From Eledone cirrhosa (Eukaryota): DNA of 64,000 bases. Positions 20,051-24,629 of this stretch are shown here, piece after piece (within the stretch, counting starts at the first letter, position 1; each line of letters begins with the position of its first letter). The stretch covers positions 54,622,001 to 54,686,000 of the forward strand of contig OZ024740.1 in NCBI GenBank assembly GCA_964016885.1, given 5' to 3'. Position numbers and translations under genes: made by a program. The notes beneath the pieces were generated by a model. The model made no database searches and had not been told where the DNA came from. It saw only the letters and a list, made by a program, of their open reading frames with translations.

Positions 20051-22432
20051 TATGACAGGTGCATGTGAAAATAAATATTCTGTAAAAATGTCATTTGGTG
20101 TTGGTAAATTGAATTTACTGATATTTTGGAAAGTCTGAAGCAGAAAGAACTCTATTGTGCATGAAGAATTTGTTAAACAGAATATCTATATTATTTGATT
20201 ACCACAGTCTTTTTTCGTTTATCCATAAGTTAAATTTTGTCATACATTTTCTTAGCTATTCAATAAGCATCACCTCGCTAATTCTTGCTATGTAAAAATA
20301 ATATTGTATTGTTACAGTCTAAAGGTGAATGAAAGCTGTACCTCAACAATCAAACATATAAAACAGAAGCCAACTGATTTTTAAGAGATTAAATTCACAT
20401 TAAATATACAAACACATACCCACTCACACAGACCTGCAAGGCAGAGGTGATAAGATATGAAGCAGATATCAGTCCAAATAAAACGGACTGCTACATCGGT
20501 AAATTAAGAAACAGAGAAAAAAGGAATACATAAGCACTATGAAATTACATACAGAATATAATGAAATAACAACTGGTGGTGAAGATAGTGTATTCATACG
20601 TGTAAAATGTGCTGAGAATGGGCTGATTATGAATACCATGTGGACATAAGGAATTCCCTTAATATTTGACATCATATTTTACGTCATATTATTTTCTTAC
20701 CGATATGAGGAAACTTCAGAATCTTTTCATTAAACCTTTTACTGTTGTTTCTTGTAACAGTTCCTAGTCGTAAACGGGACAAAATCATTGTAAAATATTT
20801 GTCTGCACGCGAGGATCATTTATCTATTTTATTTATATTGTTTAACAGAATATAATGAATATCATGCAATATTAATTGTTGCTAAGGCATACTATTTTGT
20901 GATTTACCTATTGCAGCACAATCTGGTTATATAAGAATTACATATACGTAATTTGTGGTTTTCTTATTTAGTTGATGCTGCTGGTATGTCGTTGAAACGC
21001 CCCTAGGATACTTAGATAAAAGATGTTCGAGATGTGGGCTTACAGTCATTTTTGTATAACCAGAATTATTATCGAATGCGACCGTGTAGACACTCACTCG
21101 TTTACTTGAGATTTTAATAGTTGTTATTGTTTACCCCAGTGCAGACCTGACTTATTTCATCTAATGTAGCAGACCTATAATCACAGACATTTGAGCATTT
21201 GCCACCCAATTCATTTTGTACATAGTCTACCTGGGTCTACGTTGTCGAATGACGTCTTTTAATGCAGCAAATTCTAACTTGAGGGATATATGACTAACTT
21301 TTTTCCTTGCAGTTATATAACAACTATAGTAGTTACTTCCATTGCCACGTGAGGTGCAGTTTTTTTTTTTTTAACTTCATCTCTGACAGGAGATTCACCC
21401 CTTATTTCAAAGAGTCACTCTAGGATTACATTGCCCCATATATACTTAGTGTGTAACTTAAATTAAATTCGACTGATATTTCAGATGGCGAAGTAGTTAG
21501 CTAGACATGCTATCGTAGATGTAGTCTGCATTAGTAAAGATTCAAAACCAAACTTAAATGTCATGGAGAAAGTCATTATACATTCTACTGATATCTCTAA
21601 TAGGTTAGCAATCGTCGAAATATAAACAAGATTTATGATTTTATAATTTGATGTTTCGTTTATAGCACAGAAATTTACTTCATGCGCTCCTTCCAGCAAT
21701 ATCAATACTTTCACGTTCCTATAATTTGACTATCATCTGCCTTCTTAAAATATTTGTTAGTCACAACACTTTAGCGAAAATATGTTGAATCTCGTCGTAT
21801 TTATATTCTTTAGCAAAATTTCTGCTTAATAGCCATAACATATTTTATTTCTTTATATCAGTATATCTGTACACATATTTATTAGAATTTGACCATTAGT
21901 GTGCATTGCAAGTTTGCGAACATATATCGTTCATTAGAAAGGAAAACGTTGTGGCAGTAAATAGTGAAGTCTTCAACATAAATATATAATACTACATGTC
22001 ATACTATGTACGCTTGTATTTTATTCTTTGCAAATACGATTGAGACAAAGCATACACATAGTTATATAATATAACTAATAATTCTTTATTGTTCTCAAGA
22101 TGCTAGGCGATGTTTAAGCAACACACAAACATGTTTCTAAGAATATGAGTTATAGAAAGTTTTCATTGATCATAACAGTAGATCAGTTAACGTTTGTATG
22201 GTTAAGACATTTGGTTTGCAGTCCCTTGGTTCTAAGTCATAGCCGCGGGTTTACAAACAATTTTAGACAAAAACAGGAAAGATATATATATATATATATA
22301 TATATATATATATATATATATATATATATATATATATATATATATATATATATATATATATATATATATATATATATATAGAGAGAGAGAGAGAGAGAGA
22401 GAGAGAGGATATAGATATATATATATATATAG

Positions 22433-22506
22433 ACTTCCCTGAAGACGGAATGTTTCTTCTTCTGAAAATATATTTACTCCATTCCAGAAACTAATTAGTT
22501 GGAAGT
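22433..22506 (+). ncRNA. Type I hammerhead ribozyme, family D (canonical core)
   Basis: ACTTCC-CTGAAGA-C-GGAATG...CATTCC-A-GAAA-CTAATTAG-TT-GGAAGT. Confidence 0.85.
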
Positions 22507-22946
22507 GATATTTTAGTAAGTAAGTTAATTTTATAATTTTCTTATTTTACGTCTCTCATATTATTGTTCTGCAACCCCATGCATTGAACCACAATGTTAT
22601 TAAGACAAAACCTATATATTTGCTAGCATCGATATGCATCTGTATGTATATATATGTTACTAGATATGAATTCTTTATAATTATCTCCAAATTATTTGTC
22701 GAGCAATATTGGCCTTGACTGCTGCTATGGTAGTAGGCAGGCCGCTGTCTTAATAGCAAACCACTTTCCACTGATTGACCTCGATGTCACGTGTTTGATT
22801 CTTTTTGAATGTGCCACAGACGCAGAGGCAGTGATTTTCTCAATGGCTAGGAATTCAGTCCACGCTTCGCTATTTCCTATCCACTGAATTATTTTTTAAT
22901 AAGTTTCCAGAGTCCTCGCTTTGCCTGGAAATTTATACGAGAATAG

Positions 22947-23028
22947 ACTTCCCTGACGACGGAATGTTTCTCAATATCTTATTCGGAAAATATATTTACT
23001 CCATTCCAGGAACTAATTAGTTGGAAGT
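22947..23028 (+). ncRNA. Type I hammerhead ribozyme, family D (GAAA changed to GGAA)
   Basis: ACTTCC-CTGACGA...CATTCC-A-GGAA-CTAATTAG-TT-GGAAGT. Confidence 0.7.
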
Positions 23029-24629
23029 GATATTTTAGTAAGTAAGTTAATTTTATAATTTTCTTATTTTACGTCTCTCATATATATATATATATATATA
23101 TATATATATAGAGAGAGAGAGAGAGAGAGAGAGAGAGAGAGAGAGAGATAGAGAGAGAGAGAGAGAGAGAGAGAGAGAGAGAGAGAGAGAGAGAGAGAGA
23201 GAGAGAGAGAGAGAGAGAGAGAGAGAGAGAATTAAAAATCCAGCTCCGACAAAGCTGTATATATACCAGTATGTGAATTTCGAATCTCGAATGATATACG
23301 ATGTGTTTAATAGATAAATAAAATTCACGATGTCGGATGAAAAATTTAAATTCTACTTTTAAGCTGAGCCAGCATATGAAGCTCCATATGCAAATGAGGT
23401 TGATTAGCACATCTACACAGGCAGAAATACTATATATTTTCGTCGGTTTCATGTTCCAGGAGAGAGCAGGTGAAGTTCTGTCCTGATGGCGGCCACAGCC
23501 AGAAAAGTACATTGAGAGTTGTACCCCGCTACTTCAGCTTGACTCCTCTAGACGGCGTTAGCCGTCAGCATTTAAATATTCATAGCTAGAAGCCTTTCCA
23601 AATGTTTATTTATTACGAATATCGTATATCATTAGGTATACGAAATTCACATACATACACACACACACACACACATATATATATATATATACGTGTGTGT
23701 GTGTGTGTGTGTGTGTGTGTGTGTGTGTGTGTGTGTGTGTGTGTGCATGTGAGTGGGATTGCATGTGAGGATGTATATGAATAACAGATATACGTATAAA
23801 ACAGATATATATCTTCGTTCAAAGGCAGTCATCGGAGTGTAATTTCTTAAACCAAAAGAGCGTATAAAAAAATTATTTCGAAAACATTTCAGATAATTCT
23901 TAAATATCTGTCACATATGTGAATAATATTGGATATTTATATATTGGAGCAACTTAGTAAGCCGTTTCAAAAGTCTTTATGTTGACATTTTAGGAAGCTG
24001 AATGAAGAAATTTACCACAACGAACAAATACATCGTGGAAAACGTTGAAGTGGACAGCTTCATCTGATAAAAAGAGCAAGGTAAAAATTTCCAGTTCAAA
24101 ATTTTATTCCTAAAAAATATTTCTCTCTTTAACCCCAATATTTAGAACATATTTCTCCTGTTTATTTGCATTTCATTACGTTCTGTAGTGTGGTTTCCTC
24201 ATTGGATTCAGTTAAGTGAAGAAAGAGGACAATATACTACAGGCTAGATCCAAAATATCGTCATAAATAAAAAGTTGTTAAGGTGTGCAACCTCTAAATA
24301 TTATTCGATTCACCTATAATTCTGGATTCTTCGCCTAAGCGACGAATTGTGTACGTTGACGAAAGCTTTATGAACATATTAGAGCCATTGAAAACGATGA
24401 AGAGTCTGAAGAAGAAATCATTGATTGGGAAAGTGACACTTCAGGCAGTAGTGATGAAGATAACTTCAATAAATGATAAAATACACTTCTTATGACCCGG
24501 CTTTCTTTTATTTCCCCTAAAATCGAAAAACGTTCATAACTTTTCAGCCGGAATAGCAAAACTTCCGCAGTAGAGTTTACTCTACTCGCCAAAGCTATAT
24601 TCATCTACCATTAACATCAAAGAATTGTA

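Follow-up and report, generated by a model that had tools for sequence, protein, structure and literature searches.

Results

Layout and copies of family D

The 64-kb window analyzed here is a stretch of 64,000 nucleotides (nt) of Eledone cirrhosa DNA (assembly GCA_964016885.1, contig OZ024740.1, positions 54,622,001 to 54,686,000); all coordinates count from its first base. The window is AT-rich, rich in microsatellites, and contains many retroelement remnants. At 22429-23083 lies an insertion of a repeat with hammerhead ribozyme motifs, referred to as family D. This locus is 655 nt long and consists of 1.25 units of a 522-nt non-coding repeat; that is, it is a partial tandem of a single unit, and not, as an earlier, sequence-only reading of the locus had it, two terminal repeats around a separate interior. 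The same reading placed the two hammerheads 514 nt apart and predicted the release of an RNA of that length. The starts of stem I are indeed separated by 514 nt, but the predicted cut sites, at 22500/22501 and 23022/23023, lie 522 nt apart, because the upstream hammerhead has lost 8 nt from loop 2, a part that precedes its cut. The predicted RNA, measured from cut to cut, would thus be 522 nt long.

The upstream partial unit (22429-22561, + strand), which resembles a pseudo-long terminal repeat (pseudo-LTR), includes hammerhead A and a 61-nt tail; it is identical to the downstream copy at 129 of 133 aligned bases, aside from the 8-nt deletion, and the repeated part at the locus amounts to 133-141 nt. 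The predicted cut-to-cut monomer (22501-23022, +) has no recognizable open reading frame (ORF), and the unit has a GC content of 35%. Its interior (22562-22946, +) is multi-copy and structured on the + strand only. No Pfam family was detected at the curated cutoff in any of the six frames of the unit (one match below the cutoff has E=0.018), and a tblastn search of the unit against the proteins of Penelope-like elements (PLEs) in the window gave no match. The absence of an ORF from the unit, claimed earlier, was therefore upheld, and the possibility that the interior is a coding remnant was rejected on the same grounds.

A 5'-truncated sister, copy C (3304-3582, +), is found between TA-rich repeats and consists of interior sequence, a hammerhead at 3449-3527, and the tail. 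Its hammerhead homology had been recognized before, but the homology is longer than had been stated: 3304-3579 matches 22802-23080 at 81.6%. Since this match reaches back to 22802, copy C shares about 145 nt of the interior.

Copies were compared within the window and in sequencing runs, rather than in a genome-wide alignment. Four of 16 runs (X1, X4, X6 and X14) were aligned to 22508-23080 at 80% likeness, and runs sharing few words with the unit (X5, X7-X12) were set aside. The unit is matched by 2083 contig records from X1, 72 from X4 and 3 from X6, and by 6183 reads from X14; out of 29 bins, X1 and X4 each cover 29, X14 covers 28 and X6 covers 13. Family D is therefore multi-copy, with two insertions in 64 kb and thousands of diverged contigs and reads, whose depth is not a copy number. 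The junction between tail and interior is spanned in three organisms (designated A, B and D), namely by X1 over 22534-22624, by X4 over 22510-22604, and by record 17 of X6, which proceeds from the 3' half of the hammerhead through the tail and into the interior as far as 22678. Because this junction recurs, and because the interior, whose constancy between loci had been proposed as a check, is common to many copies in the aligned runs, independent adjacent insertions are unlikely. A second subfamily differs across 22593-22668, and 906 X14 reads depart at 22592; altogether, 85% of the aligned X14 reads continue into unlike sequence. The six X14 read-end clusters listed all fall at AATT words. 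These ends were attributed to the library enzyme, and their interpretation as ribozyme cuts was rejected.

The family D hammerheads

Family D includes three type I hammerheads, all on the + strand: A (22433-22506) and B (22947-23028) at the partial tandem, and C (3449-3527) in the truncated sister. Stem I reads ACTTCC/GGAAGT in A (from 22433) and B (from 22947), versus ACTCC/GGAGT in C (from 3449), which constitutes a paired indel. Stem II reads GGAATG/CATTCC in A and B, versus GTAAGG/CCTTAC in C, with changes on both sides at 22962:23006 and 22965:23003. The stem III region, ACTAATTAGT, is the same in A, B and C (10-nt palindrome). The sequence-only reading had described all three stems in this way, with two compensatory pairs in stem II. 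A strict hammerhead scan gave four matches in the window, three of them in family D and one elsewhere, and none in each of 30 Markov-shuffled windows; the motif thus exceeds chance. Rfam models produced no match at gathering across the window, and three chance-level matches (E 1.6-2.8) in 22400-23100, which is consistent with the long loop 2 of these hammerheads. When the window was searched with a covariance model of the three copies, no fourth one emerged (eight further matches, E 1.2-4.3).

Hammerheads are cut 3' of an NUH triplet; in A the predicted cut follows GUU (22500), and in B it follows 23022. The core of A (CUGAAGA/GAAA) is intact and its stem III palindromic; stem II has one additional C and one additional A at its base, and the apical hairpin of loop 2 is partly deleted. 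The core of B has GGAA where GAAA is expected (A13G, at 23010). This lesion is private to B, since aligned reads and contigs carry A at this position: 323 of 324 and 336 of 338 X14 reads, and essentially all of the contig depth in X1, X4 and X6. Changes at A13 are reported to lower cleavage 10-100 fold (PMC4075628). Copy C has CCGA where CUGA is expected (U4C, at 3455), and because U4C is recorded as a natural hammerhead variation (PMC4075628), hammerhead C need not be dead.

In all three copies an extra A stands between stem II and GAAA, so that the base of stem II places C opposite A. AGAAA also occurs in one of about 56 entries of a supplementary alignment from 2014, in a row that is not identifiable (PMC4209133), and mismatches at this position are known, e.g., U-U in an axolotl retrozyme and others. 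Stem II of family D consists of 6 bp, an internal loop and an apical hairpin; a contact between loops 1 and 2 was inspected by eye only. The canonical type I retrozyme hammerhead has 6-bp and 4-bp helices with a tertiary contact between loops 1 and 2, and mussel retrozymes, too, have been described without conserved contact bases. As a separate observation, A (22429-22561) and B (22943-23083) have identical 61-nt tails, and everything in which they differ, four substitutions and the 8-nt gap, is located 5' of the cut site; by a hand estimate, this would occur by chance with a probability of about 0.09.

Covariation

In the three-copy alignment, every one of the 43 cells that have a letter on each side is paired, versus 23-49% when the partners are slid by 1-3 columns. 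The observed covariation score was reached in 45 of 500 pair-count shuffles. When the four stem II changes are placed at random, all six pairs are kept with P=0.012, and two both-side pairs arise with P=0.006. Loop 2 holds a further 9-bp hairpin (22973-22994, +, with a UUCG loop), of which C keeps all nine pairs, two of them through both-side changes. The three mismatches of B in this hairpin are paired in common read variants, with T at 22973 in 53-78%, T at 22978 in 26-50%, and C at 22981 in 82-100% (X1, X14). For the 15 pairs of stem II and this hairpin together, the probabilities are 1e-5 for all being paired and 0.0013 for four both-side pairs, values that lean in the hairpin's favor because it was picked by eye.

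Since A and B are nearly identical, this covariation amounts to one contrast, A and B versus C. It is real but thin, with three copies in two lineages. Thus, the compensatory pairs reported earlier hold, but to call the covariation strong was excessive for three rows. The claim that RNA structure has been under selection is supported by the stem II permutation, by the strand-specific folding of the interior and by the low energy cost of read variants (see below); this selection, however, is recorded for past source elements and not for the locus at 22429-23083.

RNA folding

On the hammerhead strand, the interior folds with a z score of -4.15, a stability reached by 0 of 100 shuffles; on the other strand z is -0.15. 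Among microsatellite-free controls (35 of 92 windows, 12 shuffles each), four are at z <=-4, always on both strands, and the one-strand pattern is seen in none. Folded as a circle, the 522-nt monomer reaches -122.6 kcal/mol (z -4.4), and none of 60 shuffles is equally stable; the monomer is therefore predicted to be highly self-paired. Read variants were displayed for 40 of 133 rows, 39 of them within the monomer. Their mean energy change is -0.11, compared with +0.64 for matched random changes (p=0.0014).

The predicted fold includes a branched domain (22595-22758, +), closed by a 13-bp helix between 22595-22607 and 22746-22758, with inner hairpins at 22615-22668 and 22710-22744; the stretch in which the second subfamily differs (22593-22668) overlaps this domain. 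Just upstream of hammerhead B is a long predicted hairpin (22890-22945, +) with a 12-bp helix between 22899-22910 and 22925-22936, which is present in copy C as well. A further stretch, 22762-22777 (+), is complementary to 15 of 16 bases around the cut/ligation site, and could act as a blocker or a splint. This complementarity was equaled in 21 of 1000 shuffled interiors, and among 30 tiled 20-mers the best one falls in this stretch. In the predicted circle this stretch would pair across the cut site, which we consider a lead only. As a general design, a complement to the cut site was rejected, with 520 of 1000 shuffles in family E (another hammerhead repeat of the window, described below) and 504 of 1000 for the site of copy C versus this interior; copy C itself cannot test the idea.

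For 22420-23090, the double-hammerhead fold has an energy of -157.7 kcal/mol, compared with -150.9 for two monomeric hammerheads, -155.2 for A alone, and -163.7 for the free fold. That is, in silico the double hammerhead is favored over two monomers by 6.8 kcal/mol. In the predicted dimer, the intact core of A would serve the cut site of B, and the damaged core of B would serve that of A.

Insertion ends and targets

The insertion is flanked on the left by an (AT)n(AG)n(AT)n compound microsatellite (22282-22428) and on the right by an (AT)n(AG)n microsatellite (23084-23229); no target-site duplication can be called in these flanks. The tail (23023-23083, +) is 61 nt long and AU-rich. Copies B and C both end at the same base, 61 nt past the cut site (...TCATAT), and then pass into TA repeats, while A passes from the same CATAT straight into the interior. 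The 5' ends vary, being 22429 at this locus versus the equivalent of 22802 in copy C. In the PLE of the anole, reverse transcription is reported to start internally, downstream of the hammerhead cut, and the targets are AT-rich (PMC11167929); partial tandems and a bias toward (TA)n targets are described for PLEs (PMC8557442). The shared 3' end, the varying 5' ends and the TA targets of family D therefore follow the pattern of Penelope-like insertion. Judging from these two insertions, the shared ATAT possibly helps to start reverse transcription; PMC11167929 reports no homology between target and start site.

Discussion

Proposed identity and mechanism

The locus is one slightly decayed insertion of 1.25 units. 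We assign a probability of about 80% to the interpretation that family D is a non-autonomous retroelement of the Penelope type, i.e., an animal non-LTR retrozyme, whose 522-nt non-coding unit would comprise a structured interior, a type I hammerhead and the 61-nt tail. Animal non-LTR retrozymes have been proposed to be non-autonomous derivatives of PLEs (PMC7229834; preprint 10.64898/2026.07.22.740005), and those described there are, like family D, non-coding, below 50% in GC content, organized as head-to-tail units, and equipped with a type I hammerhead with a short palindromic stem III; they are also alike in having a self-paired monomer and in co-occurring with PLEs. By the features tested, family D belongs with these retrozymes and would work like them. 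Its 522 nt are within the 51-972 bp range given in the preprint, but exceed the size of the invertebrate circles that were tested in PMC7229834, which measure 170-400 nt. It also departs from the animal retrozymes described so far in having a 6-bp stem II with an internal loop and an apical hairpin instead of a 4-bp stem II with a loop-loop contact, and in being found as 1.25 and 0.5 units in TA repeats instead of in long arrays. Its predicted circle hides the cut site; according to PMC7229834, this is the case in plant retrozymes, in viroids and in some circles of mussels, but not in most animal ones.

The hammerheads of PLE pseudo-LTRs (PMC4209133; PMC8557442; PMC11167929) share with family D an extra nucleotide after A9, the G10.1-C11.1 pair, a long stem II, a palindromic stem III, the GUU triplet, the partial tandem, a fixed 3' end downstream of the cut and an AT-rich target. 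GUU triplets are common in the PLE hammerhead alignment of PMC4209133, and family D matches the PLE consensus given there (CUGANGAH G..C GAAAN palindrome NUH, with an AU-rich 3' flank), save for one extra A before GAAA. Its 3' end lies 61 nt past the cut, versus 85-92 nt in the anole element (by our own subtraction from PMC11167929). Unlike PLEs, the unit of family D contains no ORF for reverse transcriptase (RT) and GIY-YIG endonuclease, and its identification as an autonomous PLE was thus rejected. MRC1 of Chlamydomonas (PMC8557442) is, like family D, non-coding, with pseudo-LTR and head-to-tail insertions at microsatellite targets; derivatives of this type are placed in the Chlamys clade of algae, most of which lacks hammerheads, and have a 3' end like that of their autonomous partners (PMC8557442), whereas no partner of family D was found in the window. 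Plant LTR retrozymes (PMC6765202; PMC7229834) have a similar repeat-interior-repeat appearance, no ORF, and a hammerhead blocked in the predicted circle, but they feature type III hammerheads, true LTRs of about 350 bp and 4-bp target duplications, whereas family D has a type I hammerhead, a partial tandem, variable 5' ends and no true LTR. This identity was therefore also rejected.

The mechanism that we envisage begins with the transcription of a tandem source locus. Two hammerheads would then pair via their palindromic stem III and cut after GUU, as in homologous systems, to yield 522-nt monomers, which a host ligase may circularize. A Penelope-like RT/GIY-YIG protein, presumably acting in trans, would nick (TA)n DNA, and reverse transcription would always start at the same internal position, 61 nt downstream of the cut, the end point seen in both insertions, possibly aided by AUAU. 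Copying would run through the hammerhead, the interior and the next hammerhead before stopping, so as to produce the partial tandem seen at the locus; the template might be a circle or an uncut multimer. Copies would then decay, as exemplified by A13G in B, U4C in C and the 8-nt loss in A. As supporting context, ORFs of the RT/GIY-YIG type and other hammerhead repeats are found within the same 64 kb.

Several points weigh against this interpretation. No autonomous partner with a matching pseudo-LTR was found in the 64-kb window, and no locus with two full units was found among the material examined. The read pieces listed are at most 230 nt long and none covers the whole unit, whose integrity elsewhere is therefore deduced from overlaps. 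Cleavage, expression and RNA circles are, for family D, predictions. The active folds are not those of lowest energy, the free fold lying below the dimer (-163.7 versus -157.7 kcal/mol), and taken by themselves, neither hammerhead A nor hammerhead B is more stable than shuffled sequences (z -0.1 and +0.27). Of the 39 variants, 19 fall at unpaired places of the predicted circle fold, 6 keep the pair and 14 disrupt one; seven of these 14 are in the hammerhead, a structure absent from that fold. Within the 13-bp helix, 22600:22753 is a C-U mismatch in most other copies. Lastly, 22962 is changed from G to A in about 40% of X14 reads, with no partner change among the rows displayed.

Alternative explanations

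One variant of the cleavage step, which would leave the identity of family D unaltered, is that the hammerhead is now dispensable, the element having spread from uncut tandem RNA in which the folds serve as a binding signal for the PLE protein. PLE hammerheads have been described as weak in vitro, and one required protein for cleavage and was dispensable for insertion in vitro (PMC11167929); in this anole element, hammerhead mutants insert normally and no RNA ends were seen at the cut site (PMC11167929). Cutting might also be slowed by having C opposite A at the foot of stem II, where U-U is the best tolerated mismatch. On the other hand, A13 is nearly invariant in the reads and the stems covary, which argues for selection on the catalytic fold; we regard dispensability as a minority possibility to be kept in mind. 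A more specific version of the preferred interpretation is a viroid-like retrozyme, in which a 522-nt circle with an extended-stem-II hammerhead would have its cut site locked by 22762-22777 and would be copied by a Penelope RT from the fixed AUAU into (TA)n. We consider this version, in all its parts, fairly unlikely.

It is unlikely that this very locus is an active source, which self-excises a unit-length RNA that then circularizes, as first proposed. Core A is intact, the double-hammerhead fold in cis places it over site B, and A also folds alone, so that both sites could be cut in turn; the monomer, moreover, folds stably as a circle. However, B carries its private core change and A has lost part of the loop-2 hairpin. 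The locus would thus be a poor source, since any RNA excised here, 522 nt in length, would carry a damaged core, and there is no known promoter. Li et al. 2026 consider as active those loci with two consecutive units and complete hammerheads; here there are 1.25 units, and B has A13G. In addition, eight of nine predicted retrozyme dimers of Xenopus are reported to have remained uncut in vitro.

We hold it to be unlikely that family D, instead of being a stand-alone unit, represents only the 3'-terminal non-coding part, i.e., a long pseudo-LTR, left by truncation of an autonomous Penelope-like element. PLEs do leave 5'-truncated copies with hammerheads and partial tandems, copy C resembles such a fragment, and the loose ends of the reads were displayed only in part (276 are outside those displayed). 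Nevertheless, the unit closes on itself within 522 nt without coding sequence, the tail runs directly into the interior in three organisms, and the well-agreed loose ends at 22592, 22669 and 22805 (X1, X4) resemble diverged interior and not an ORF. Finally, the notion that two short hammerhead elements arrived by separate insertions, one on each side of unrelated DNA, to which the four base differences and one 8-nt gap between A and B might be ascribed, is largely refuted by the run alignments and is highly improbable, given that copy C has part of the same interior, that the interior is multi-copy and that the tail junction recurs in other organisms.

Implications

Retrozymes are already known as a kind, and our finding mainly adds a family. 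In this family, though, one short element unites features of retrozymes, namely a non-coding, strongly folded hammerhead unit, with marks of Penelope insertion, namely the partial tandem, the fixed internal 3' end and the TA targets. The link between retrozymes and Penelope was only proposed in 2020 (PMC7229834), and in the 2026 preprint (10.64898/2026.07.22.740005) it draws its support from phylogeny, chiefly in vertebrates. The loop-2 hairpin that covaries and the putative blocker of the cut site each make a specific prediction that can be tested cheaply. If the locked circle were real, family D would be a compact substrate, directly open to testing, for asking by which enzyme animal retrozymes are moved and if that enzyme uses the circle as its template. 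We found no description of family D in literature on octopus hammerhead ribozymes and on cephalopod Penelope elements with hammerheads, nor among the papers listed on retrozymes since 2021. Repeat libraries and some supplements were outside this search, so family D may be present in a repeat catalogue without a name, and the supplement of PMC7229834 may hold relevant invertebrate retrozymes.

Other elements in the window and beyond

Broken Penelope-like RT/GIY-YIG ORFs occur at 37218-38864 (+), 26435-28018 (-) and 6119-6715 (-), with remnants near 33172-33318 and 47365-47576. They represent candidate helper families, with no sequence in common with family D. Of 8000 candidates scored against the ORF at 37218-38864, 702 are homologues; the ORF resembles eukaryotic clusters with RT, HTH_animal and GIY-YIG, which is the Penelope-like architecture; a PDB sequence search with this ORF gave no useful match. 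A hammerhead with a U3-A8 core variant (28066-28029, -) is immediately 5' of the remnant at 26435-28018, and a minimal hammerhead-like motif (5752-5711, -), spotted by eye, belongs to the non-coding 3' portion of the GIY-YIG remnant at 6119; this remnant terminates in a TA repeat near 5500. Three other stretches, at 12066-16103 (-), 41274-43807 (+) and 156-2273 (+), we take from their translated motifs to be remnants of endonuclease/RT non-LTR retrotransposons.

Beyond the window, a search of viral contigs gave no match, and a motif scan of metagenomes gave six loci, none of which is homologous to family D beyond the motif. Two GC-rich metagenome contigs (L004, 1774-1834; L006, 1445-1505) have CUGACGA, GAAA, the same palindrome and a possible 4-bp stem I, with no clear stem II and a fold z of 0.16; these motifs are probably due to chance.

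Copy C is flanked by a further repeat in inverted and direct arrangement (2859-3148, 3701-3869, 16838-17147), which is the source of a both-strand folding signal at 2696. Family E (46290-45020, -) is a second hammerhead repeat, with 707 nt from cut to cut, about 1.8 units, and TA repeats on either side. Its long loop 2 and palindromic stem III give it the architecture of family D, to which it has no sequence match, and its circle fold has a z of -2.5 on the hammerhead strand and -0.3 on the opposite strand. Family F (48500-51100) is a tandem and inverted array of units of roughly 430 nt. It contains five short hammerheads (48696+, 50564+, 50163-, 49726- and 49289-), whose 4-bp stem II has a U-U mismatch at its base, like axolotl HHR_Amex2.

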